Positions 29,692 through 42,488 of a stretch of DNA of 64,000 nt are shown here, piece after piece. Source of the DNA: an uncultured Candidatus Saccharibacteria bacterium. Its GTDB lineage: Bacteria; Patescibacteriota; Saccharimonadia; Saccharimonadales; EFPC-124. Within the stretch, counting starts at the first letter, position 1. Every line of letters starts with the position of its first letter. Below the pieces are notes generated by a model. The model did no database searches, was not told the DNA's origin, and worked only from the letters and a program-made list of their open reading frames with translations. Position numbers and translations under genes: made by a program. The DNA lies in NCBI GenBank assembly GCA_964550035.1, contig CAZJVU010000001.1, positions 83,990 through 147,989 on the forward strand, given 5' to 3'.

Positions 29692-30084
29692 ATGAGCATG
29701 CAGGAGACCCCTGAGGCTCAACTGGCAGATTTTCGAGGCCCCTTTTACCCCTTGACGATCGAGGAGGTCGCCAAGGCCTACGTGGGATGCGGTAACCTGG
29801 ATGCTTCCAGGGTGGAACTCGCCGCACGTCGTGGCTACGCGTTCCATTCCATCAGGTGGAATGTCATCACCCAAGACGGCTACCAGTGGTACGCAGTAGC
29901 GACATTTGGTCTCGTTGGTGGGAGGGGAGCAATTGCCCTACCGCGGGCGCGAGACCTCAACAGGCGGGACAACGTTCCGCTTGACCGTTCGCCAGCCGTC
30001 TACCTGAAGGGGACGGTTTCTACGCGGGATGCAGCTCGGATCGCGGAACGATTCGCCCGAGCCCTGCGCAGTGTGCAGGGCTGA
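29692..30084 (+). CDS. hypothetical protein, paralogue A (high-GC3 unit 7)
   Basis: GAGGAGG SD. TGGTATAGT extended -10 at 29637-29645. Shares LDRSPAVY, KAY and YP motifs with the next gene. Confidence 0.65.
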   Translation: MSMQETPEAQLADFRGPFYPLTIEEVAKAYVGCGNLDASRVELAARRGYAFHSIRWNVITQDGYQWYAVATFGLVGGRGAIALPRARDLNRRDNVPLDRSPAVYLKGTVSTRDAARIAERFARALRSVQG

Positions 30085-30103
30085 GTCAGAAAGGAACCTG
30101 TTC

Positions 30104-30499
30104 ATGAGCCTGAACCAAGTGGCCGAGGCGAACCTCGATGGTTACGGCCCGCCCATCTACCCGCAGGCTGAGATCTGGAGCCTCACAAAGGCGTACACCT
30201 CACAGGGGCCGGAGGGCTTCATGGCGAGGACGTTGGATGCGGCGGCCAGAGCCTGCCACGGTTTCGACACGGCCAGCCGAGTCATCCGGACATCGGACGA
30301 CTACGTCTGGCGTCGGATCATCGAGTTCAAGTTCCAGGGTAAAGCCCGGGTGGCAGTAGCCTTTCCGGGCGCTCGAAGGAACGACTGCGATGGCTCGCAG
30401 CTCGACCGTTCGCCGGCCGTCTACATCGCGGGCGGCGCAACGGAGACGCTCGCCAAGGCTGTGCTGGTGGCGCTCGCGAGAACTCTGTACCGCCGCTGA
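30104..30499 (+). CDS. hypothetical protein, paralogue B (high-GC3 unit 7)
   Basis: GAAAGGAA SD. Collinear similarity with 29692..30084. Confidence 0.65.
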   Translation: MSLNQVAEANLDGYGPPIYPQAEIWSLTKAYTSQGPEGFMARTLDAAARACHGFDTASRVIRTSDDYVWRRIIEFKFQGKARVAVAFPGARRNDCDGSQLDRSPAVYIAGGATETLAKAVLVALARTLYRR

Positions 30500-31508: not shown

Positions 31509-31595
31509 AGAATAACCTCCACAAATACTATTATTTTTATAGTAGCATGCTCGAAGGTGCGGGCAAAAAGCTAACGCTAATGCTATACTTTGGTC

Positions 31596-32255
31596 ATGGC
31601 ACGGTATCACTATCGCGAGGGTGTGACTCTTGATAAGAAAAAGAGTCGTTGGTTTCTCTATCTTATTGGTGCGATTATCTTTGCTGCCGCTGCGTATGTA
31701 GCTGCCGTGTACTTGGCGCCGCAACTCGTCACAGTACCCTTTACAAGCCTGACCGCGGATGCTACGGACAACAAGATTCAGAGCTCAAAGGCTGGGCAGT
31801 TTGGTGATCATCTCTTCATCCCGCAAATAAACGTCGATGTGGCCATCAACGTTGGCGGCGATAAATCACAGCTCGAAGCTGGTGTGTGGCAACGCAATAC
31901 TGATCTTGGTAACCCTGATAAGGGCGGCAACTTTGTGCTCAGTGGATACAAATTTACCTGGGACACACTGCCGCAATGGGCGCGTGCAAAATCGCCGTTC
32001 TTTAACCTCGGCAAGCTGAAGACTGGTGATGACTTGACGCTCGACTACAAGGGGAAGCGTTATGTCTATAAGGTAGATCGCACGGCCAGTGTCGCATCGG
32101 GCGATACAAGCGTCGAGCAGAAGAGTGACGGCTACCGTCTGACGCTCTATGCAGCCGATGCGACCGGAACGGCGTTGGCCGGGCCGGCTATTGGCGCGCA
32201 TCGCATCAGCCCAGCGCTTGATCAACAGGCGAACGCGAGCTTTGGCGAACAGTAG
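31596..32255 (+). CDS. sortase-fold protein lacking catalytic His and Cys (pseudo-sortase)
   Basis: N-terminal TM and sortase-like LFIPQINVDV..GNFVLSGY..GDDL..YKV..RLTLYAAD. Tyr replaces the GH histidine and the TLxTC cysteine is absent. ATG lies 6 nt after TGCTATACT. Confidence 0.6.
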   Translation: MARYHYREGVTLDKKKSRWFLYLIGAIIFAAAAYVAAVYLAPQLVTVPFTSLTADATDNKIQSSKAGQFGDHLFIPQINVDVAINVGGDKSQLEAGVWQRNTDLGNPDKGGNFVLSGYKFTWDTLPQWARAKSPFFNLGKLKTGDDLTLDYKGKRYVYKVDRTASVASGDTSVEQKSDGYRLTLYAADATGTALAGPAIGAHRISPALDQQANASFGEQ

Positions 32256-34220
32256 TTAGAGCTGTGGCGTGATCTCGTTTAATGCCTGCGAAACAGTCAG
32301 AACAGGAATCCCTGTTGCTTTGATAGCGCCCAACTGCGCATCGAGATTGGCGGCGGTAATAGACCACGCAGCGCTGTCAGCGATGACAGGGTCGCCGACA
32401 CCGTGATAGACGAGCACGAGCCAGGTGTGCTGAGCTTGGGCTTGATTGACCCACGCGGCAACCTCTTCGGTTGTGGTTGTGGCCAGAATGTTTTGCACCT
32501 TGATGTTATAGATGTCGAAGTTATCTTTGCTGTTGAATCCAACGTCGACTGAGCGGTGTGATCGGTAGTACTGCTTGATCGCGGCGATCGATTCGGCGTT
32601 GTATTCGCCGTGTGGCGTTGCAAAGTCGGTTGGCTTCTGGCCAGTGATCGTCGTGAGGTCGCTCTGCGACTGCGACAGTTCCTGCTGGAGCTGTGTGGCA
32701 GTGAGAGTGATGAGCGAGCTGTGCGTCACGGTGTGCGAGCCAATCTCGTGGCCAGTGTCGGCGAAGGCTTTCATCATTGCAGGTGTCATGTAGTTAGGGT
32801 CGGTTGTGTAGCCGCTCAGCATGTACTGGGTCGAGAGGAAGTTGTACTTCTGGAGGAGTGGCAAGCCGTTGAGGTATACCGAGCGAAGCGAATCGTCGAA
32901 TGTCAGGCTGACCATGCCTCGGGTGAAGCCAATTGGTTCGTATTTGACCAGCTTGTAATCATCCGTGTTGAGGTAGCCCACGCCGGCCATGCTGTGATAT
33001 ACCATGATCGAAGCCGCGCCAGCTGGTACGGTAAACTGCTGGTCGAAGTGGTTCCAGCCTGTGCTGTGCCATGCAGTCCCGATGTTCAGCCACTGCTGAC
33101 TGCCGTCCTTCATGGTTACTTCGGCGTAAATGTACGTGTCGACGTTTGACTGGTAGTAATCAGAGAATTCGTAAAGCGCGCCACCGGTGACAGGCTGCGT
33201 CGGATATGACCAGTAGGCGTCGCCGTTCGTGTAGGCGCTCATAGTGATGTTAAGGCTGCGACTGCCGCTATGGCCGCTGTTTTGGTAGGCAAAAGTGGTT
33301 GTATTCGTCTTGGATTTGTTGGTTTGCCAGTTTGCAGGCAGACTGCCGGATGCGGTCTCGACCGATGGATTAGGCACAAGGTTCGATCCTGTCGGCTGCG
33401 CGTTATTAGCGACCGTTACGATAACTGCACTCGAAGTGGTTGTCTTGCCTGACGTATTGCGAGCAACGGCCGTGAGCGTGTGCTGACCGTCGGCGACGAC
33501 TTTGGTGTTCCATTGTGTCTGGTACGGGGCGGCCGTTACTTCTGCGCCAAGGTTCGCGCCATCAAGCTTGAACTGGACGCCGGCCATGCCGATCGTGTCG
33601 CTGGCGTTAGCTGCTACGGTGACGGTTTGGCTGATGGTTGAGCCATTCGACGGGCTCGTGATGCTGACCGTAGGAGCAGCTGGCGCTGTGGTGGCAAGGC
33701 TGAAGTTGTCTGTCTGAAGGTTGCCGGTGCCGCTCAGGATGTGCATAACGGTCATAGTAACAGCATTGCTTGGTGTTTTGACGCTGGCGGTGAGCTTTTT
33801 CCAGCTGGTGCTTTTATTGGCGCCACCGAGCCATTGGAAGGAGTCGTTGCCCTGTGCATCGGTGAAGCGAGCCAGGAGATCGGTCCAGGTCGAAGACTTG
33901 TAGTAGTCGCTATACGTATATGTGGTGTCAGGAGTGACGGTGACGGGTGCAAAGATCCATTTTGCATCACCACTGCTATGAGTTGTCATAGAGACGTACA
34001 GACTGTGGCTGCCATTTTGGCCGTTGTTTTTATATGCAAAGGTCGCGTTATTGGTACCCCATTTATCGGTAGACCAGCCCGTTGGTTGGCCGCTGGCGCT
34101 TTGTTCGACTGATGGGTTGCTAATAAGATTAGGCGAGGCGGCAAGGGCTCCCTGGAACGGGGTCAGAGTCAGCCAGCTGAGGAGTATGCCAAGGGCAATA
34201 CGTGGCGCAAGTTTTTTCAT
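32256..34220 (-). CDS. secreted polysaccharide deacetylase (NodB domain) with two CBM-like modules and an Ig-like domain
   Basis: Signal peptide. VSLTFDDSLRS and GHEIGSHTVTH NodB motifs. Duplicated N-terminal NPSVE..W modules. Confidence 0.85.
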   Translation of the reverse strand: MKKLAPRIALGILLSWLTLTPFQGALAASPNLISNPSVEQSASGQPTGWSTDKWGTNNATFAYKNNGQNGSHSLYVSMTTHSSGDAKWIFAPVTVTPDTTYTYSDYYKSSTWTDLLARFTDAQGNDSFQWLGGANKSTSWKKLTASVKTPSNAVTMTVMHILSGTGNLQTDNFSLATTAPAAPTVSITSPSNGSTISQTVTVAANASDTIGMAGVQFKLDGANLGAEVTAAPYQTQWNTKVVADGQHTLTAVARNTSGKTTTSSAVIVTVANNAQPTGSNLVPNPSVETASGSLPANWQTNKSKTNTTTFAYQNSGHSGSRSLNITMSAYTNGDAYWSYPTQPVTGGALYEFSDYYQSNVDTYIYAEVTMKDGSQQWLNIGTAWHSTGWNHFDQQFTVPAGAASIMVYHSMAGVGYLNTDDYKLVKYEPIGFTRGMVSLTFDDSLRSVYLNGLPLLQKYNFLSTQYMLSGYTTDPNYMTPAMMKAFADTGHEIGSHTVTHSSLITLTATQLQQELSQSQSDLTTITGQKPTDFATPHGEYNAESIAAIKQYYRSHRSVDVGFNSKDNFDIYNIKVQNILATTTTEEVAAWVNQAQAQHTWLVLVYHGVGDPVIADSAAWSITAANLDAQLGAIKATGIPVLTVSQALNEITPQL

Positions 34221-34330
34221 GATCTCGAATACCTTTCACGTAATTAGAGAATGAGACTTTAAGTTAATGATACAACTTATAAAACAGATGTCAATACCTA
34301 TTATCACTAGTGCTTAGCCTGACATTAGTA

Positions 34331-34359
34331 TTTACAAATCAGGTAAATAGGTATATAGT
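34331..34359 (+). promoter_or_regulatory. near-consensus promoter of the mini LPNTAG gene
   Basis: TTTACA, 17 nt, TATAGT. AAGGAG SD at 34380-34385. Confidence 0.55.
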
Positions 34360-34393
34360 CACGTTCCGACGGATAATGTAAGGAGTAAAGTAC

Positions 34394-34579
34394 ATGTCTG
34401 GTAACGATATTGGTAAAGGTGCGGGTCCTGTTGCTCCAATTGCAGCAGGCGTCGCAGTCCTCCCAAACACCGCCGGCAATCCACTACTGATGGTCTTTAG
34501 CATCGTAGCAATTGTCGCAGGCGTCGTCGCATTGAGCAGCTTCATCGCTTCTCGTCTCGTGCTTCGCGCAACCCGCTAA
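34394..34579 (+). CDS. 61-aa protein consisting essentially of an LPNTAG sortase sorting signal (motif + TM + basic tail)
   Basis: ..AAGVAVLPNTAGNPLLMVFSIVAIVAGVVALSSFIASRLVLRATR. Strong promoter, SD and terminator. Confidence 0.65.
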   Translation: MSGNDIGKGAGPVAPIAAGVAVLPNTAGNPLLMVFSIVAIVAGVVALSSFIASRLVLRATR

Positions 34580-34605
34580 TTTTTATTAACGGTTGTCTCA
34601 AATAA

Positions 34606-34655
34606 AAATACAAATAACCGCTTCGAGGGTACCCTTCGGGCGGTTATTTGTATTT
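34606..34655 (+). terminator. long AT-rich hairpin terminator
   Basis: AAATACAAATAACCGC / GCGGTTATTTGTATTT with T-rich tail. Confidence 0.75.
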
Positions 34656-34669
34656 GAGGCTTAGTCATT

Positions 34670-35944
34670 ATGAATATCATACTCTATATCATTATTGTTC
34701 TCGGGATTCTCAACCTTATTCGGCTGACGACTTTTATGGTCAGCGCCGATCTGTACGAAATGCGCCGCAAGCGCCAGCAAGCCCTGGCCGCAAAGACGCC
34801 GCAGGAATCGTACACGCCGTTTGTATCTATCGTCATTCCGGCATATAACGAAGAACTTTGTATTATCCGTACGCTCGAGTCGGTGTTGGCGAACGACTAT
34901 GTGTACAAGCAAATTATCATCGTCGACGATGGCTCGAAGGATAAGACCTATAACCGGGTTCGTTACTACCTCCGTAAGCACAATATCGGTATCGTCAAAC
35001 TCGTCCACCAAGCCAATAAAGGCAAGGCCGCTGCCATCAACAACGGCATAAAGAAGCACGCGCTCGGTAGCCTCGTAATGGTACTCGACGCCGACTCGCT
35101 GTTGCACCGACAGGCTATCAGTAAGATGGTCGAGTACTTTCGTGACCCAACCGTTACGGCGGCAGCGACAAACGTCAAGGTTATCTCTGGTCGCAGTGTT
35201 CTGAACGCAGCACAGCGGCTCGAGTATGTTGTTTCGCACCGTATGAAGCGTGCGCTGACGGCACTGAACATGGAGTACATTGTGGGCGGCGTCGGCTCAA
35301 CCTTTCGCAAAGATATCATCGAAAAGTGTGAGTACTACGACACTGACACCATGACCGAAGACATCGACTTCACCATGAAGATCATTGCTCGCCAGGGCAA
35401 TCGCAACAGTAAAGTTGTGTTCGCCGCTGACGTGCTGGCGTACACCGAGGGCGTGACACGCTTCAAGAGTCTTATCCGTCAGCGTTTCCGCTGGAAGTAC
35501 GGGCGTATGCAGACATTCGTCAAGAACCGCTCGGTGTTCTTCAGCCGCGACGCAAAGCATACCAAGCAGCTCAGCTGGTTGTACCTGCCGTTCGTTGTCT
35601 TCAGCGAGCTAGAGCTCCTGTTGGAGCCGGTGCTCACGGGGTTCGTGCTCTATAACTCGTTCCTGTACGGTGGCATGGGCGGTTTCCTGAGTGCCTATAT
35701 ATTTGTGGTTATCTTTAGCACGATCAACATTTTGAGCGAGACGACCGAGTCGGGCCGCGGTAAGCTGTCGCTGATGCTCCTTACGCCGTTTGCGTATGGG
35801 CTGCTGCTGATTATGTCATTCGTTGACTTCATGGCGCTCATCAAGTCGCTGGTCCGCTTGCCAAAGCTCTTTGGTGGTCAGGTGAGCGTCGGCCACTGGG
35901 AGCATGTGGAGCGGACCGGTGGCGCCGTGAAGGTTGCGGCTTAG
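34670..35944 (+). CDS. processive family-2 glycosyltransferase (PgaC/IcaA/NodC-like synthase)
   Basis: VSIVIPAYNEE, IIIVDDGSKD, VLDADS and QRFRWKYG (QxxRW). TM helices at both ends. Confidence 0.85.
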   Translation: MNIILYIIIVLGILNLIRLTTFMVSADLYEMRRKRQQALAAKTPQESYTPFVSIVIPAYNEELCIIRTLESVLANDYVYKQIIIVDDGSKDKTYNRVRYYLRKHNIGIVKLVHQANKGKAAAINNGIKKHALGSLVMVLDADSLLHRQAISKMVEYFRDPTVTAAATNVKVISGRSVLNAAQRLEYVVSHRMKRALTALNMEYIVGGVGSTFRKDIIEKCEYYDTDTMTEDIDFTMKIIARQGNRNSKVVFAADVLAYTEGVTRFKSLIRQRFRWKYGRMQTFVKNRSVFFSRDAKHTKQLSWLYLPFVVFSELELLLEPVLTGFVLYNSFLYGGMGGFLSAYIFVVIFSTINILSETTESGRGKLSLMLLTPFAYGLLLIMSFVDFMALIKSLVRLPKLFGGQVSVGHWEHVERTGGAVKVAA

Positions 35945-35995: not shown

Positions 35996-36040
35996 AGGCA
36001 GATATTATTCTATAATATGTTTAAGACTATCTGAAGGGAA

Positions 36041-36238
36041 GTGGTCGTTGTGTTTGGGTTGATCATGGCGTCTCTCGGCTTCGGCCTCATCGTCGGTCTC
36101 TTCGGTGGTGCTTTCCGCGTCGCGAATGCCCACGACTGGGGCTACATCGTCCGATTCTGGCCGTCCTTCGTGATGTGCGCCGTACCGACCGTGGTGCTGA
36201 TGTTCCTCATCGGAGGGCTCATGCTTCTTCTCCACTGA
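36041..36238 (+). CDS. 65-aa two-TM membrane protein (high-GC3 unit 8)
   Basis: GTG start after GAAGGGAAG. 52 of 65 codons end in G/C (hand count). Hairpin follows. Confidence 0.5.
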   Translation: MVVVFGLIMASLGFGLIVGLFGGAFRVANAHDWGYIVRFWPSFVMCAVPTVVLMFLIGGLMLLLH

Positions 36239-36344: not shown

Positions 36345-36953
36345 TTAGACCTTTTCAACCTTCGTAAAGTCGAGGATGAAGAAACGGCGGCTTTCCGAGA
36401 AGGCACCGACGCACGTCTGCAGCAGCAGGCGAGGCGAGCCTTCGTACGAGAGGACGTTCGTCGTCTGAGGGGTGACGGTCTCGGTTTCCTTGAGCGTATA
36501 GGTGAACTTGTAGCCGTTGCTGGTGTAGACTTCGACGACCTGGCCGACCTTCATGTTCAACAGTTTACCGAACACACGCTGCGTAGCGTGGCCGTAGATG
36601 AACGTCTGGCCGGACTTGTCGTTTGGCTCAGTAGTCATAGCGGCAAACATAGCTTTATCGTCGTAGAGCGTCCAGTCACCAGATGATTTGTCGTAGAAAC
36701 CATCAACAACTGACATATCCACACCAACAGATGGCGAGACGACACGAACGGGGTGACCACTGATAGATTCAGGGGCCGGCTCGGTTTTTTTCACCTCTGT
36801 CACAGGGGTTGCAACCTGGGAAGAATTCGATTCAGCAAAAGCAGTGGTAGCGCCACTGTTAAAGAGGGCGGGGATCAAGCCCATCAGTCCAATGACTGTG
36901 AGCGCAACACCAGCAATAGCAATATTTGGAGGGGTTAAAAACTTCTTCTTCAT
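36345..36953 (-). CDS. sortase (catalytically complete)
   Basis: TM anchor, TFIYGH histidine motif, LLLQTC cysteine motif and downstream Arg. ATG at 36953 follows AAGGGAG. Confidence 0.85.
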   Translation of the reverse strand: MKKKFLTPPNIAIAGVALTVIGLMGLIPALFNSGATTAFAESNSSQVATPVTEVKKTEPAPESISGHPVRVVSPSVGVDMSVVDGFYDKSSGDWTLYDDKAMFAAMTTEPNDKSGQTFIYGHATQRVFGKLLNMKVGQVVEVYTSNGYKFTYTLKETETVTPQTTNVLSYEGSPRLLLQTCVGAFSESRRFFILDFTKVEKV

Positions 36954-37057
36954 CACAAACTCCCTTGAGGTGGGGTATACGAATACTATACCATAGTATG
37001 TCAATAATGTAAATACCTTTTATGCTTATCACCGGACGTGGTAAGCTCTAGATAACC

Positions 37058-37891
37058 ATGAGCGCTTTTTCTTCTTTAAAGATACGTCGACGTGGGGCAG
37101 CGCTCGCCCTGGCTTTTGGCGTCTCGCTGATGTTAGCACCTCTGGCAAGTGCGCAGTCGAATGGTTCGTTAGCTCAGGGGTACGCAGTGAGTACTGACAG
37201 GGGTCAGATCGTATCTGGGGCGCTGGTGAGCCTCAAATCTGACTCGCAGAGCGTCGAATTGGCAGCAACGGACACCGTGGATCGCCTTGTTGGCGTGGTT
37301 GATCAGAAGCCGCTGGTCGTCATATCGGGTAATGCGCAGGAGTCGCAAATCGTCTTAAGCGGTACGACCGCGGTGCTCGTGAGCGATATCAACGGTACTA
37401 TTAAGGCTGGCGACAAAGTGACTGCCTCGCCGATTGCCGGGGTTGGCATGCGTGCGACGACAGATGCGCGGATTGTTGGCGGGGCGCAAACCGACTTCGA
37501 TACAGGAAAGGCTCAGACGCAAACCATCACTGACATTCATGGCGCCTCACATGAGGTACACGTCGGATATATTCAGCTCCAGGTAGGGCTTGCGAACTAT
37601 CAAGCACCGGGGAGTAATTTCTTGCCACCATTTGTACAGAATATCGCTAACAGCGTCGCGGGGCGGCAGGTATCGCTGATACGAGTGGTCTTTGCGACGA
37701 TTTTGCTTCTGTTTAGCTTTGTGAGTATTGCGATTCTTATATCCAGCTCAATCCGTTCAGCCATGATCTCGCTCGGGCGCAACCCACTGGCGGCGAGCAA
37801 TATTCGTAAAAGCATTTACCAAGTCGGTGGCGTAACGTTGCTGGTGCTGGGCGCTACTCTGGTAGCGTGTTATCTTATCCTGATTTTGTAG
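37058..37891 (+). CDS. secreted/membrane protein of unknown function (signal peptide plus C-terminal two-TM hairpin)
   Basis: Signal peptide ..APLASAQS. C-terminal helices flank a GRNPLA loop. Confidence 0.65.
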   Translation: MSAFSSLKIRRRGAALALAFGVSLMLAPLASAQSNGSLAQGYAVSTDRGQIVSGALVSLKSDSQSVELAATDTVDRLVGVVDQKPLVVISGNAQESQIVLSGTTAVLVSDINGTIKAGDKVTASPIAGVGMRATTDARIVGGAQTDFDTGKAQTQTITDIHGASHEVHVGYIQLQVGLANYQAPGSNFLPPFVQNIANSVAGRQVSLIRVVFATILLLFSFVSIAILISSSIRSAMISLGRNPLAASNIRKSIYQVGGVTLLVLGATLVACYLILIL

Positions 37892-37978
37892 ATAAGCGCA
37901 AGCAAGTTCTTGCCTTTTTGCCTCGCCTCATTGTAAAATAAACATAACAACTGAGGTTGGGTTTTTAAAACAAACAAA

Positions 37979-40219
37979 ATGCAAAACGAGCGCTCCTTCG
38001 ACGTAGCGCCAGACCCTTCGGTCCAACAAACAGGGACCGCGACGGCTGGCACGTCGCCTTCCCAGGCGATCCCTCTTCGGGTGGCGCCTCCACCTCAGGG
38101 GACGCCCATCCCACCACGCGCCCCTTCATATACTGCACCAGCACAGGCACGGCGCAGCTTGTGGCGGTTTATTGCGATTGGACTCGTCGTCATTGTGGCG
38201 TTGGTTGGTGGCATTATCGCGCTGTTTACGCAGCTTAGTCGTCAGCAGCAAGTCCAATCCGGTGAGTACAATGTCTTGAAAGTACCTCTCACGAGCTTTG
38301 CGGGCAAAGGTGTCCCGCTCCAGAATGCAACCAGCCTGAAGGTGAATGGTCAACTCGACATCAGCCAGTCGGTACGGTTTACTCCTTCGACACAGCCCAA
38401 GAACCCGCTTGCCGGCCAACTCTACTTCGACCAAGCGTCGAGTAAGCTGCTGTACTACGACGGCCAGCAATTCATAAGTGTCGGATCTTCGAATACGACC
38501 GTAAACAACACCACGAATACGACCGGCGGCGCTATCACGACGAATGTCACTAATGTGCTGGGCGGCTCTGGCAACTCACAGTTTGGTGTGGAGCTACAGT
38601 CAGCGGCGCCAGGCGTGCAGCAGGTGGGCAACTTTAACGTTTCAGGGACGGGGCAGGTCGGTAACCTGAAGACATCATTGATTGATCCAGATAATGGCAC
38701 ATTGGTGGTTAAGGCGCCGACATTTAGCGTGCAGAATTCGATCGGACAGAGTGTTATTACCTCGAATACAAGCGGAATTACCGTCACGACCACTCCGGCT
38801 AGCGGCGTAACCGGCGATATAACGATCAAGAGCGGGGATTCGTCTACCACGGCTTCGGGCGATGTTACTGTCGACGCTGGAGCGGGGTTTGTATCTGGTA
38901 CGGTTGTTGGAAATAAGACTTTTGAGAGCGGGCTCGACAACATGACGCCTTGGTTTGGCAGCACGATTGCGCAGTCGTCGGCACAGGCGCACAGCGGCGT
39001 CGAGAGTTTGCAGATGACGACAACAGGTGGATTCTGGGGCGTCATAGAAGGCGTCAATAATCAGATGGCGCCGGCTGTGCCTGGGCACAGCTATCACTTT
39101 AGTCTGTGGGTACGCGCAGCTACGACGCCTCGAACAGTTGGCGCAACGATTGTTTGGAATGGTGGCTCCGGGACGATTCCTCTGCAGCCAGTCGTAGACA
39201 GCACAACCGGTTGGATCGAAATGACCGGTAATGGCGTGGCACCGGCGGGCACAACCGGTGCGTATTGGGAAGTTTCGGGAAGCGGTACGTCAGCTGGCGA
39301 AGTGCATTACTTCGACGACATGGTCGTTACCGACCTCAGTTCTTCGAGCGCGACGTCAGTTCTGAACCTTGGTAATACGAACGCGCAGATCGTGAACATC
39401 GGCAATATGAATCAGATTGGCGCAACGACCATAAAAGGCGGCAGTGGCGTCGATATCCAGAGTGGACAGAGCGGCATCACGCTGACTGGTGGAGCTATCA
39501 ACCTCACCGGAAGCGCGGCTTCGACACTGAGCACGACTGGTGGCGCCTTGACTGTCAATTCTGCCACGACCGCAAGCTGGGGTGTCTCGACTGCAACGTC
39601 AGGAGTGGGCGGTAATCTCACGCTCCATGGTGGTAATGGAGCTACCGGCGGTGCAAATAATGGTGGCGACCTCGTCCTGCAGGGCGGCAACCAGAATGGT
39701 GGTGGCATCGGAGGTAGCGTGGTGGTCAAGCCTCAGGCAGATTCGGCTCAGGCGTTTCAGGTTCAGAACAGCACGGGCGTACAGCTGCTTGTGGCTGACA
39801 CAACGGCCATGAAACTCTCTGTTACCGGCACCGCGACGACCTTTGCATCGCTGACGCTTGCCAACGCGCACTTTGGTTCGACGCAAACTAACCCGCCAAC
39901 GATCGCCACGCCAACTAACTGTGGCACCACGCCAACGGCGGCCGTTACGGCTGGTTCCACTGACTCTGCGGGTTCATTTACCATTACGACTGGGACGGGC
40001 GGGACATCATCGACGTGCGACACGGTGTTTACGTTCAATAAGCCATACGGCGCTGCACCGAAATCTATTATCGTCGTGGGCAAAACCGATGCCGCATCTG
40101 CCGCGCGCCAAGCCTACGTGGTCTCGTCGAACGCGACGAGCTTTACGGTCAGCTTTGGCGCAAGTGCGGCGGGCGCCAATAGCACGACATATAACTTCAG
40201 CTATTGGATCATCGAATGA
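37979..40219 (+). CDS. large N-terminally anchored surface protein with CBM4/9-like module and Gly/Thr/Ser-rich beta-repeats
   Basis: Pro-rich cytoplasmic head and a TM helix. FESGLDNMTPWFGSTIAQSSAQAHSG..GHSYHFSLWVRA resembles the CBM of 21397..23907. Confidence 0.7.
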   Translation: MQNERSFDVAPDPSVQQTGTATAGTSPSQAIPLRVAPPPQGTPIPPRAPSYTAPAQARRSLWRFIAIGLVVIVALVGGIIALFTQLSRQQQVQSGEYNVLKVPLTSFAGKGVPLQNATSLKVNGQLDISQSVRFTPSTQPKNPLAGQLYFDQASSKLLYYDGQQFISVGSSNTTVNNTTNTTGGAITTNVTNVLGGSGNSQFGVELQSAAPGVQQVGNFNVSGTGQVGNLKTSLIDPDNGTLVVKAPTFSVQNSIGQSVITSNTSGITVTTTPASGVTGDITIKSGDSSTTASGDVTVDAGAGFVSGTVVGNKTFESGLDNMTPWFGSTIAQSSAQAHSGVESLQMTTTGGFWGVIEGVNNQMAPAVPGHSYHFSLWVRAATTPRTVGATIVWNGGSGTIPLQPVVDSTTGWIEMTGNGVAPAGTTGAYWEVSGSGTSAGEVHYFDDMVVTDLSSSSATSVLNLGNTNAQIVNIGNMNQIGATTIKGGSGVDIQSGQSGITLTGGAINLTGSAASTLSTTGGALTVNSATTASWGVSTATSGVGGNLTLHGGNGATGGANNGGDLVLQGGNQNGGGIGGSVVVKPQADSAQAFQVQNSTGVQLLVADTTAMKLSVTGTATTFASLTLANAHFGSTQTNPPTIATPTNCGTTPTAAVTAGSTDSAGSFTITTGTGGTSSTCDTVFTFNKPYGAAPKSIIVVGKTDAASAARQAYVVSSNATSFTVSFGASAAGANSTTYNFSYWIIE

Positions 40220-40965
40220 GCGTTCCGTCGCTGCACGTTCCGGCGCGGGTTCGTCAGATTGCAGGAGAGCCGAACTGGTACGACCATCTTGACCTAATAC
40301 GGAGCTGCTTGTCGCTCGGATCACTAGCAGTGGATGCGAGTAAGAAGCCAGGCGAACAAGCTTCGCAGCTCACGCTCACGCTTTTTACGCAGCTGCTCAA
40401 GGAGGGCGCCGCGACACTCGGAGAGGCAGGACCAAACTGGGACGTCGAGCGCCAGGCGATCGATACGGTTGTCGTGCATCATACCTCTCGGCCAGCACCG
40501 ATGGACTTGTCGCAGCTGAACGCCATGCACCTCCTGAATCTCTATGTGCCAAAGTACCGCAATCCTGGCCCCGACCTCGAGATTATTGGTGGCACGCCGG
40601 TGTATTCGGGCCATGCAGATCAAGCCGGAAGGCAGGTGTTTTACGGCTATCATTGGCTGATTCGGGAAGATGGTTCAAGAGAGCGCCTGCTGGATGATGC
40701 GGCGATCGGCTGGCATTCGGGCGATTGGGAGACGAATGCGCGGAGTGTTGCGGTGTGCTTTGACGGCGACTTTGAGACCGGTCGGCCACCGCAGGCTGCG
40801 CTGGACTCGGCGGCTGAGCTCATAGCTGAGCAGTATGCGGGCGTTGTATCGACCAGAATTTTGGGGCACAACGCTGTCGTGCAGACGGTTTGTCCCGGTA
40901 ACGACTTTAGTTTGTGGGGCGAAGAGCTCCGCGCACTGGTCGATGCCACCCGGGCAACTTCTTAA
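40216..40965 (+). CDS. N-acetylmuramoyl-L-alanine amidase (Amidase_2/PGRP fold)
   Basis: VVVHHTS, GYHWLIREDG, GWHSGDWETNARSVAVCFDG and LGHNAV..CPGN. ATGA overlap with the upstream stop. Confidence 0.8.
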   Translation: MSVPSLHVPARVRQIAGEPNWYDHLDLIRSCLSLGSLAVDASKKPGEQASQLTLTLFTQLLKEGAATLGEAGPNWDVERQAIDTVVVHHTSRPAPMDLSQLNAMHLLNLYVPKYRNPGPDLEIIGGTPVYSGHADQAGRQVFYGYHWLIREDGSRERLLDDAAIGWHSGDWETNARSVAVCFDGDFETGRPPQAALDSAAELIAEQYAGVVSTRILGHNAVVQTVCPGNDFSLWGEELRALVDATRATS

Positions 40966-42488
40966 ATTTCGCGGAATACTTCGATACTAGCGCCAAGCTC
41001 GTTGAGTCGAGCGGCGAGATCTTCATAGCCACGGCTGATGCTGTACACATTGCGCAGGATAGATGTACCAGGGGCGGCCAACATGCCGATCAGTACCAAC
41101 ACGGCTGGGCGCAGCGCTGGCGGGCAGATGACTTCGGCGGCTTTCCACTTGGTTGGGCCAGTTACATAGGCACGGTGCACATCGGCGAGCTGGACGTTGG
41201 CGTTGAGCTTGGTGAGCTCGGTGTAGTAGATGGCGCGATTTTCGTAGCTCCAGTCGTGGATGAGCGTGCGGCCTTCGGCTGTCGCGGCGATAGGTACAAA
41301 GTAGGGCAGGTTGTCCATGTTCATGCCTGGCGCATCGTGGGCTTCGAGCTTGTCTTCTGGGGCAATGAGCTGTGGTGATTCGTGGCACTGGATATCGACG
41401 AGCGTCACCTTGCCGTTATCTGACTTGTATTCAGGCCCCACGGTGAAGTACATGCCCATTTTCTCAAGCTTGAGCAGCTCGAGGTCGAGAAAGTCGATAG
41501 GACAGCGCGTAATTTTGATAGGCGAGTTAGTCGTCGCGGCGATGCTGAGGAACGTCATGGCCTCGATAGGATCTTCGGCCGGACTATAGGTGACATTCTT
41601 GTTGATGTCTTTGATGCCGTGGATGCGGAGGCGGTCGGTGCCGATGCCTTCGATTTTGACGCCCAGCTTTTCAAGGAAATTACAGAGGTCGACAACCATG
41701 TAGTTGTATGCGGCGCGGCGGATTTCGGTGACACCTGGCGTGCGCGCAGCGGCCATAATGGCATTCTCGGTTGGTGTGTTGCCGGGCTCGTACATAACGA
41801 CACGGCCGGGAGCTTTTGGCTTGCTGTAACAGGTGTACCATCCGGTGTGAGTCTCGACGTTCAAGCCGAACTCTTCCAGTGCAAAGAGGTGTGGACGAAT
41901 GGTGCGTTCGCCAAGCTTACAGCCACCAGCGTAGGGCAGGCGGAATTCCTTAAACATGTGCATCAGTGGCGCCATGTACATGATGACGCTGCGGGTTTTG
42001 CGGCCGGCTTCGGCGTTCATCTCATCGAGCTTGAGCTTGGCGGGTGGTTTGATCTCGAGGTCGTTGTGCTCGTTGAGCCAACGTGTCTGCACGCCGATAC
42101 TATTGAGCACCTCGAGGAGTCGGTTGACTTCTTCGATACGCGGCATCCGCCTCAGCGTCGTCTTGCCTTTGTTGAGGAGCGCTGCGCACATGATAGCGAC
42201 AGCTGCGTTTTTGGAGGTTTTAACAGCAATGGTGCCATGCAGCTTGCGGCCACCTTCAATGCGAAAGTTAAGCGTGCCAGGCTTGTTGAGCGAGACGATC
42301 TCGCTGTTAAGCACGTCACTGATGCGCGCCAGCATCTCCATGCTAAGGTTCTGGCCGCCATTCTCGATACGGTTCACCGCGCTTTGGCTGGTGCCGAGCG
42401 CTTTCGCCATTTCGGCCTGAGTCAGCCCCCGATCTTGGCGGGCTTTCTGAATAAGTTTGCCTATTTTTTCCTTGTAGCTTGCATCCAT
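40962..42488 (-). CDS. murA: UDP-N-acetylglucosamine 1-carboxyvinyltransferase with N-terminal XRE-type HTH domain
   Basis: Residues 1-65: KARQDRGLTQAEMAKALGTSQSAVNRIENG. Then MurA motifs GTIAVKTSKNAAV and YAGGCKLGERTIRPH (catalytic Cys loop). Confidence 0.88.
   Translation of the reverse strand: MDASYKEKIGKLIQKARQDRGLTQAEMAKALGTSQSAVNRIENGGQNLSMEMLARISDVLNSEIVSLNKPGTLNFRIEGGRKLHGTIAVKTSKNAAVAIMCAALLNKGKTTLRRMPRIEEVNRLLEVLNSIGVQTRWLNEHNDLEIKPPAKLKLDEMNAEAGRKTRSVIMYMAPLMHMFKEFRLPYAGGCKLGERTIRPHLFALEEFGLNVETHTGWYTCYSKPKAPGRVVMYEPGNTPTENAIMAAARTPGVTEIRRAAYNYMVVDLCNFLEKLGVKIEGIGTDRLRIHGIKDINKNVTYSPAEDPIEAMTFLSIAATTNSPIKITRCPIDFLDLELLKLEKMGMYFTVGPEYKSDNGKVTLVDIQCHESPQLIAPEDKLEAHDAPGMNMDNLPYFVPIAATAEGRTLIHDWSYENRAIYYTELTKLNANVQLADVHRAYVTGPTKWKAAEVICPPALRPAVLVLIGMLAAPGTSILRNVYSISRGYEDLAARLNELGASIEVFREI

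Follow-up and report, generated by a model that had tools for sequence, protein, structure and literature searches.

An association between protein sorting and exopolysaccharide (EPS) loci has been described for the PEP-CTERM/EpsH system (PMC1569441). In the XrtG system of L. plantarum, the genes stand in the order Firmicu-CTERM protein, exosortase and two glycosyltransferases (PMC12854382). For TM7 genomes, sortases and proteins predicted to be sorted have been noted in general terms only (PMC3812714), and a genome paper on CPR bacteria (candidate phyla radiation) is likewise general on sortases and predicted sorted proteins (PMC6744442). Saccharibacteria live as ultra-small epibionts; attachment to the host is decided by their surface, and little is known of how their envelope is built. 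Here, we analyze a stretch of 64,000 nucleotides from an uncultured Candidatus Saccharibacteria bacterium (the window), identical in sequence to Logan contig L004. It encodes a 61-residue protein that consists essentially of a sortase sorting signal; this mini-protein and its gene, the mini gene, lie between a polysaccharide deacetylase of carbohydrate esterase family 4 (CE4) and a glycosyltransferase of family 2 (GT2). In the literature on sortases in Saccharibacteria, TM7 and CPR, on small LAXTG proteins, on sortases and poly-N-acetylglucosamine (PNAG) and on sortase substrates without a signal peptide, the family and its gene cassette were not found described.

The sortase motif is the strongest constraint in the mini family, and the mini gene has a near-obligate neighborhood with a catalytically intact sortase and a PgaC-like synthase. 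From these comparisons, we consider it on balance probable, by a modest measure, that the mini gene encodes a sortase substrate without cargo and without signal peptide, and that it belongs to a module of Saccharibacteria comprising the mini gene, a sortase and a PgaC/IcaA-like GT2, usually with a CE4 deacetylase nearby. Such a module would tie a sortase to a processive glycan synthase, and it suggests an undescribed coupling of a ribosomal peptide to the assembly of a cell-surface glycan.

A conserved family of minimal sorting-signal proteins

The initial annotation had taken the mini gene for a real, strongly expressed gene on the strength of a promoter, a Shine-Dalgarno (SD) sequence and a hairpin behind it, and all three signals are present as described (Table 1). 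The promoter is kept as TATTTACA-N17-TATA[GA]T in the window and in the related loci L001 and L005, despite saturated synonymous sites. At the protein level, the window sequence is 79% identical to the L001 orthologue and 90% identical to that of L005. Comparison of the mini gene with both gave 1.1–1.3 synonymous substitutions per site (dS, saturated), 0.055–0.125 nonsynonymous substitutions per site (dN) and a dN/dS ratio of 0.05–0.10. The open reading frame (ORF) is a real gene under strong purifying selection, and its promoter and SD sequence are conserved as well. Strong expression is a candidate reading of consensus-like signals kept in three lineages. The product is short, hydrophobic and of low complexity, and the gene is overlapped by an antisense ORF of 68 aa, which are the features that a chance ORF or an intergenic annotation artefact might have; this explanation is refuted by the dN/dS ratio and by hundreds of homologues that share length, motif and synteny, and retains practically no probability.

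The start of the gene leaves no room for a longer product. An in-frame TAA stands at 34379-34381, and the four codons that separate it from the ATG include no start; therefore, there is no concealed N-terminal signal peptide, and a hidden N-terminal extension is ruled out. Behind the gene, the hairpin was matched by none of 200 shuffled sequences in folding stability. An Rfam scan of positions 34200-34700 gave chance-level matches only and no known RNA element.

The extent of the family depends on how it is searched. A word-indexed protein search with the single window sequence as query returned only 4 close relatives. When 1.84 billion representatives were searched exhaustively with HMMER, 31 clusters at 50% identity emerged (E ≤ 1e-3), nearly all of ∼60 aa; with a profile built from 46 members, the count was 426 clusters at 90% identity. 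All of the 120 matches listed of these 426 are 56–88 aa long; the names among the matches listed are "hypothetical protein" or, wrongly, "HdeD/DUF308," and the others are unnamed. A conserved gene family of ∼60 residues has been overlooked by gene callers and domain databases, and the module, which is widespread (hundreds of sequence clusters), is annotated as "hypothetical" only. In a species-representative genome collection, all 10 matches came from Candidatus Saccharibacteria or from metagenome-assembled genomes of Saccharimonadales. A related-locus search with a narrower alignment gave 10 genome loci and 9 metagenome loci. One HMMER match, a 1386-aa repeat protein (P0016), was considered as a cargo-bearing relative and rejected as spurious, the match being to "APVAMTLVLLPDTATNP" repeats.

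Conservation statistics were calculated over 149 unique family members and position-wise conservation over a set of 49 sequences. LPx[T/S] is present in all 149 members, which shows that the motif is no chance match, and LPNT is present in 137. The segment ahead of the motif (N-tail) has a median length of 22 aa (range 16–36) and a net charge of 0 in 104 members; in the 49-sequence set, 75% of it is Gly, Ala, Val, Thr or Ser. At the other end, the last 12 residues carry a charge of at least +2 in 143 members (C-tail +2 to +5). The 49-sequence set shows no variation at M1, G19, L23, P24, T26 and G43 and little at N25, N29 and S49, N25 being kept in 44 of the 49. The earlier description of the protein as a bare sorting signal without a signal peptide holds, except that 22 residues, not about 24, lie ahead of the motif's Leu.

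Like LPXTG substrates, the window protein has a C-terminal pentapeptide (LPNTA, residues 23–27) and a hydrophobic span with a positive tail; it has neither a Sec signal peptide nor a passenger domain, with just 22 residues preceding the motif, and so breaks two textbook rules for sortase substrates. By analogy with sortase biochemistry, cleavage is predicted between Thr26 and Ala27. An AlphaFold2 model calculated from the family alignment (mean predicted local distance difference test [pLDDT] 82) has a helix at residues 30–60 (>90), a short helix at residues 13–21 and a loop at the motif. Conservation in the transmembrane (TM) segment peaks at L32, S36, I40, the invariant G43, L47 and S49/F50, a spacing that fits one helix face. 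The periodicity of this conservation is high at 100–120 degrees; its single highest peak, however, is at 170 degrees. The charge asymmetry between the N- and C-tails predicts an N-out, C-in topology.

Domain models recognize the family weakly. For the window mini-protein, Pfam and NCBIfam gave nothing at default thresholds and only subthreshold LPXTG-anchor matches at E up to 10. PF00746 matched 19 of 33 members weakly, with 12.9 bits for the window protein against a cutoff of 20, and TIGR01167 matched 17 of 33 weakly (best E 0.0038), the window protein not among them. NF058583 (LAXTG_small_WW) matched 1 of 33 members with an E of 0.49; the motif of the mini family is LPNT[G/A/S/N]. The statement that LPNTAG is the sole signal of its type in the window was borne out when every stop-to-stop ORF of 40 aa or more was scanned in six frames: no other C-terminal signal of LPxTG type is credible, the two further LPxTG-type matches being loose motifs within antisense ORFs. 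The hidden Markov model (HMM) of the mini family likewise has no match in the window besides the 61-aa protein, and no long LPXTG protein is encoded in the window or in the flanks of the loci examined. A pilin, the substrate of class C sortases, was considered and rejected; Lys occurs in the N-tail of 35 of the 149 members only, at no conserved position.

Gene neighborhood and candidate functions

Synteny was compared across the 24 distinct loci whose sequence extends past the 3′ end of the mini gene. The next gene encodes a sortase (∼195 aa) in 20 of them and a GT2 (∼425 aa) in the remaining 4 (the window, L005, L022 and L034). The order mini gene, sortase, GT2 on the same strand is found in 15 loci, often with overlapping stop and start codons, and a CE4 deacetylase adjoins the mini gene or the cassette in 15 loci. 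In an all-against-all comparison of flanking ORFs, the sortase, the GT2 and the deacetylase were the sole conserved partners. The catalytic His, Cys and Arg are kept in all cassette sortases and in the sortase of the window. The initial annotation had named the deacetylase, GT2 and sortase correctly as neighbors, and its proposal that homologous mini-ORFs might be found beside sortases in CPR genomes is borne out in 20 of the 24 loci. It had missed that most lineages carry a dedicated sortase between the mini gene and GT2 and that the window lineage has a paralogue past the GT2 in its stead.

The history of the window locus can be read from its relatives. Between L001 and the window, the deacetylase is 73%, the GT2 76% and the protein with MurA and helix-turn-helix (HTH) domains 83% identical. 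In L001, the mini gene and GT2 flank a sortase. No sortase occupies this position in the window and L005, which carry, past the GT2 and on the other strand, a sortase paralogue that is 31%–40% identical to the cassette sortases (31%–39% for that of the window). That the window sortase is an inverted orthologue of the cassette sortase was ruled out, its identity to the L001 sortase being 32%–34% versus 73%–83% for the flanking genes. In the window lineage, the cassette sortase was replaced and not simply lost. In L031, the gene directly after a mini gene encodes a relative with 51% identity to the window-type sortase. In the close relative L033 (MurA-HTH protein 87%, sortase 72% and pseudo-sortase 70% identical to the window), exactly the deacetylase-mini-GT2 block is absent, and sortase and pseudo-sortase still lie side by side. 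The absence of this block indicates that the deacetylase, mini and GT2 genes behave as a unit.

In 10 of 22 loci (L005, L010, L012, L018, L019, L022, L023, L024, L030 and the window), a GC-rich hairpin lies between the mini gene and the gene behind it, often followed by a T-run. The following gene is a sortase or a GT2, and the hairpin sequences are unrelated between loci. Hairpins of unrelated sequence look like a convergent attenuator architecture, and the layout of mini gene, hairpin and enzyme gene resembles that of a structural or precursor gene placed ahead of its processing enzymes. It suggests, but does not prove, that many lineages make more of the peptide than of the enzymes.

From these features, the following mechanism may be proposed for a sortase substrate. 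The 61-residue protein would insert as a single-span membrane peptide, N-out/C-in, without a Sec signal peptide. Its uncharged 22-residue N-tail would be translocated via YidC, as in the Pf3 coat protein, and the +3 tail kept inside, which would place LPNTAG at the outer face of the membrane, with the customary spacing to the TM helix. A membrane-anchored sortase would then cut after Thr26; this would be the cassette sortase in most lineages and the paralogue past the GT2 in the window. The 26-residue peptide MSGNDIGKGAGPVAPIAAGVAVLPNT would be handed to an envelope amine, for which the peptidoglycan stem peptide or lipid II, or a CE4-exposed glucosamine on the GT2 polymer, are candidates. Through the conserved face of its TM helix, the peptide may dock specifically to either the sortase or the synthase. 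With its own promoter and the hairpin behind it, the mini gene would supply peptide in excess of the enzymes, as a building block that is consumed.

Several points weigh against this reading. To our knowledge, there are no sortase substrates that lack a signal peptide, and N-out insertion of the mini-protein is inferred solely from charge bias. The window protein falls below the curated thresholds of both LPXTG models, TIGR01167 and PF00746. The loci were located through the mini-protein, so that sortase-GT2 pairs without it fall outside the count. Because L033 keeps its sortase without a mini gene, the window-type sortase is not dedicated to the mini-protein. In about half of the loci, the gap behind the mini gene is 2–41 nt and holds no hairpin, and production in excess is not universal. 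Finally, in the L034/L035 lineage, the mini gene and GT2 are 2 nt apart, no sortase is found within 10 kb, and the C-tail is acidic. The existence of this sortase-less lineage makes the mini-GT2 pair the invariant core of the module, and its arrangement favors a role tied to the synthase over one tied to a sortase.

Such a role is the substance of the main rival explanation, in which the mini-protein is an accessory subunit whose TM helix completes or activates the GT2, on the pattern of IcaD with IcaA and PgaD with PgaC, the LPxT motif serving only turnover or regulation or remaining uncut. PNAG synthases need a small membrane partner (IcaAD, PgaCD), and PgaC_IcaA is the best NCBIfam match of the GT2. 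The pairing of mini gene and GT2 is invariant, and four loci, L034 among them, lack an intervening sortase; the loss of deacetylase, mini gene and GT2 as a block in L033, the single conserved helix face and the invariant G43 also fit a subunit. However, conservation in the family is highest at the L, P and T of the motif (149/149), which would be senseless if the motif were unused, and a sortase gene stands between the mini gene and GT2 in 20 of the 24 loci. Hairpins after the mini gene in about half of the loci speak for excess and not for a 1:1 subunit. The mini-protein has one TM helix instead of two, and no IcaD or PgaD model is among the best 25 of 28 NCBIfam or the best 25 of 27 Pfam families matched at E up to 10. 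We regard the accessory subunit as unlikely but as deserving serious weight; it is compatible with a sortase substrate, and both may hold.

The four genes might also form one pathway to a peptide-polysaccharide conjugate. The GT2 would extrude a chain of poly-GlcNAc type, the CE4 enzyme would unmask glucosamine amines, and the sortase would use these amines, instead of or besides peptidoglycan, either to graft the 26-residue peptide onto the glycan or to tether the glycan to the wall through the peptide. Taken as a whole, we hold this scheme to be doubtful. If true, no sortase known earlier would act on a polysaccharide as acceptor, and no earlier known sortase substrate would be exported without a signal peptide.

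A simpler product would be an ordinary small wall-anchored peptide, with the 26-mer placed on peptidoglycan as a decoration or cap and the GT2 and CE4 enzymes merely sharing an envelope regulon. LPNTA is the wall-anchoring motif of class D sortases in Bacillus, and the tripartite geometry of the signal is canonical. In NCBIfam, class D models are the top matches, at subthreshold scores, of the pseudo-sortase and among the top matches of the active sortase. The report of sortases and predicted sorted proteins from TM7 genomes (PMC3812714) is also in line with a wall peptide. Left unexplained are the near-obligate pairing with GT2, the loss of the block in L033 and the conserved TM face, and an N-tail that varies in length (16–36 aa) and sequence offers little for a specific surface function; we judge this explanation quite improbable. 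Among the three roles that the initial annotation had suggested, a primer or anchor for a polymer gains from the invariant mini-GT2 pairing and the block loss in L033, a decoy or regulator fits the conserved helix face poorly, and a wall-linked peptide is possible at the strength just given.

In a further alternative, the sortase would build a peptide polymer or ring, the N-terminal amine attacking the acyl intermediate of its own or another molecule to join 26-residue units rich in G, A and V into a lysine-free, pilus-like fiber. Sortases perform head-to-tail ligation and cyclization in vitro. Conservation of the N terminus is unusual, with M1, either Y or S as the second residue and G3 in 33 of 48 sequences, and the peptide is apparently in excess. 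On the other hand, position 2 is Tyr or Ser/Thr, which would give differing mature N termini, a pilin-type Lys is absent from the 149 members, and GT2 and CE4 are left without a role. We know of no natural precedent for a head-to-tail polymer or ring built by a sortase, and consider this explanation very improbable.

If the preferred role as a sortase substrate is confirmed, V-L-P-N-T-G-G-N would be the recognition motif of CPR sortases, and the mini-protein would offer a minimal natural substrate for their study. It would also make it possible to test directly if sortases can join peptides to polysaccharides or fix exopolysaccharides to the wall.

Features of the window and of related loci

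Table 1. Positions of the mini gene, its signals and its neighbors (numbering of the window unless a locus is named)
Feature	Position	Strand	Basis or remark
Mini-protein ORF, 61 aa plus stop, product MSGNDIGKGAGPVAPIAAGVAVLPNTAGNPLLMVFSIVAIVAGVVALSSFIASRLVLRATR	34394..34579	+	
Sigma-70-like promoter, TTTACA (34331-34336), N17, TATAGT (34354-34359)	34331..34359	+	10/12 match
Shine-Dalgarno sequence AAGGAG	34380..34385	+	8 nt before ATG; kept in L001 and L005
N-tail, residues 1–22, uncharged overall, rich in G/A/V/P/I; sole "cargo"	34394..34459	+	Family composition, AlphaFold2
LPNTAG sortase motif, residues 23–28	34460..34477	+	L23, P24 and T26 invariant in 49-sequence set
Predicted transmembrane helix, residues 31–53	34484..34552	+	Hydrophobic; AlphaFold2 helix 30–60
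Basic, predicted cytoplasmic tail RLVLRATR, net +3	34553..34576	+	Sequence; family C-tail charge
Putative terminator or attenuator hairpin, 15+6 bp, between mini gene and GT2	34608..34653	+	−35.7 kcal/mol, z = −6.8
Membrane GT2 synthase, PgaC/IcaA-like, 424 aa	34670..35944	+	Pfam GT2 families
Secreted CE4 polysaccharide deacetylase, 654 aa, Big_7 domain, N-terminal repeats	32256..34220	−	Pfam/NCBIfam
Membrane-anchored sortase, His/Cys/Arg intact (predicted active)	36345..37004	−	Pfam Sortase PF04203
Pseudo-sortase, sortase fold, catalytic Cys to Ala, His lost	31590..32255	+	Pfam Sortase, residue check
65-aa ORF with two hydrophobic segments, just 3′ of GT2	36041..36238	+	Absent from L001 and L005
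76-aa ORF, public gene call at the same site	36005..36235	−	
Two proteins without Pfam matches, between sortase and amidase	37058..40219	+	This lineage only; not in L005 or L033
508-aa fusion of XRE-type HTH and MurA/EPSP_synthase fold	40962..42488	−	61%–87% identical in L001, L005, L007 and L033
Tandem, partly overlapping paralogous ORFs, 142 and 156 aa	29656..30084 and 30029..30499	+	Common C-terminal "...LDRSPAVY..."
Divergent family branch, LPLTGGS, acidic C-tail HVLEEEK	L034 10001..11433; L035 6740..8172		
Large serine recombinase 1.4 kb upstream of cassette	L039 3064..5850		

The GT2 has the motifs DDG, DAD, TED and QRFRW, one N-terminal hydrophobic segment and several C-terminal ones. 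Its best NCBIfam match is TIGR03937 (PgaC_IcaA; E 1e-44), with 153 bits against an equivalog cutoff of 422, and the second is TIGR03111 (XrtG-associated glycosyltransferase; E 4e-31), with 108 bits versus a cutoff of 364. The enzyme is named only "PgaC-like" here, as suggested by the best match and the D, D, D and QxxRW motifs, yet it lies under the cutoff. For the active sortase, the probable start gives a protein of 202 aa ending at 36953. The second sortase-like protein had been called a pseudo-sortase, and the loss of its catalytic Cys and His agrees with that call. It lies tail-to-tail against the deacetylase and is conserved in L001, L005 and L033; it could be a non-catalytic binding partner for LPNT.

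The 65-aa ORF behind the GT2, which the public annotation replaces with an ORF on the opposite strand, is probably outside the module, given its absence from L001 and L005. Of the two lineage-specific proteins beyond the sortase, one (277 aa) has a signal peptide and C-terminal TM segments and the other (746 aa) an N-terminal TM segment and a composition rich in Thr, Gly and Ser. In the related loci, L034 and L035 encode a subtilisin-like S8 peptidase upstream of the mini gene and Peptidase_M73 and LTD-domain proteins downstream. In L039, where the recombinase lies near the cassette, a GT-C enzyme (Mannosyl_trans2) is encoded in lieu of the deacetylase; this arrangement hints that the cassette is perhaps mobile or modular.

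Comparison with known systems

The C-terminal 39 residues of the mini-protein, in which LPxT[G/A] is followed, after a short spacer, by a TM helix and then a basic tail, are built as in the LPXTG substrates described by TIGR01167 and PF00746, and a catalytically intact, membrane-anchored sortase is encoded nearby, as for these substrates. In contrast to them, the mini-protein has no signal peptide and no folded passenger, 22 uncharged residues being its only "cargo," and its gene is tied to a GT2 synthase. A TM face conserved throughout the family, with an invariant Gly, would also be unexpected in a generic LPXTG anchor. The "LAXTG motif-containing small protein" of NF058583, compared by model name and score, is likewise a very small protein with a sortase-type motif, but the LAXTG motif and the association with class E sortases belong to NF058583 and not to the mini family. 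In size, in its short and weakly charged N-tail, in its one TM segment and in its basic C-tail, the mini-protein is similar to the Pf3 coat protein and other signal-less, N-out substrates of YidC; there is no homology to Pf3 coat, and the analogy concerns topology only.

Analogous to IcaADB and PgaBCD, the module encodes a PgaC/IcaA-like GT2, a CE4 deacetylase and a small membrane protein together. It differs from both in including a sortase, and the mini-protein differs from IcaD and PgaD in its single TM segment, its sortase motif and its lack of similarity to either. With the GT2 below the PgaC/IcaA equivalog cutoff, the polymer of the mini module is only putatively of poly-GlcNAc type. In its logic, the module comes closest to the XrtG system, in which a sorting substrate, a sorting enzyme and glycosyltransferases follow one another in the same order. 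Unlike the enzymes of the XrtG and PEP-CTERM systems, which are polytopic exosortases, that of the mini module is a sortase with the cysteine transpeptidase fold (PF04203), and the mini family has LPNTG as its signal instead of PEP or Firmicu-CTERM. Signal peptides and passenger regions are the general rule among PEP-CTERM proteins, whereas the mini-protein consists of little more than the sorting signal itself.

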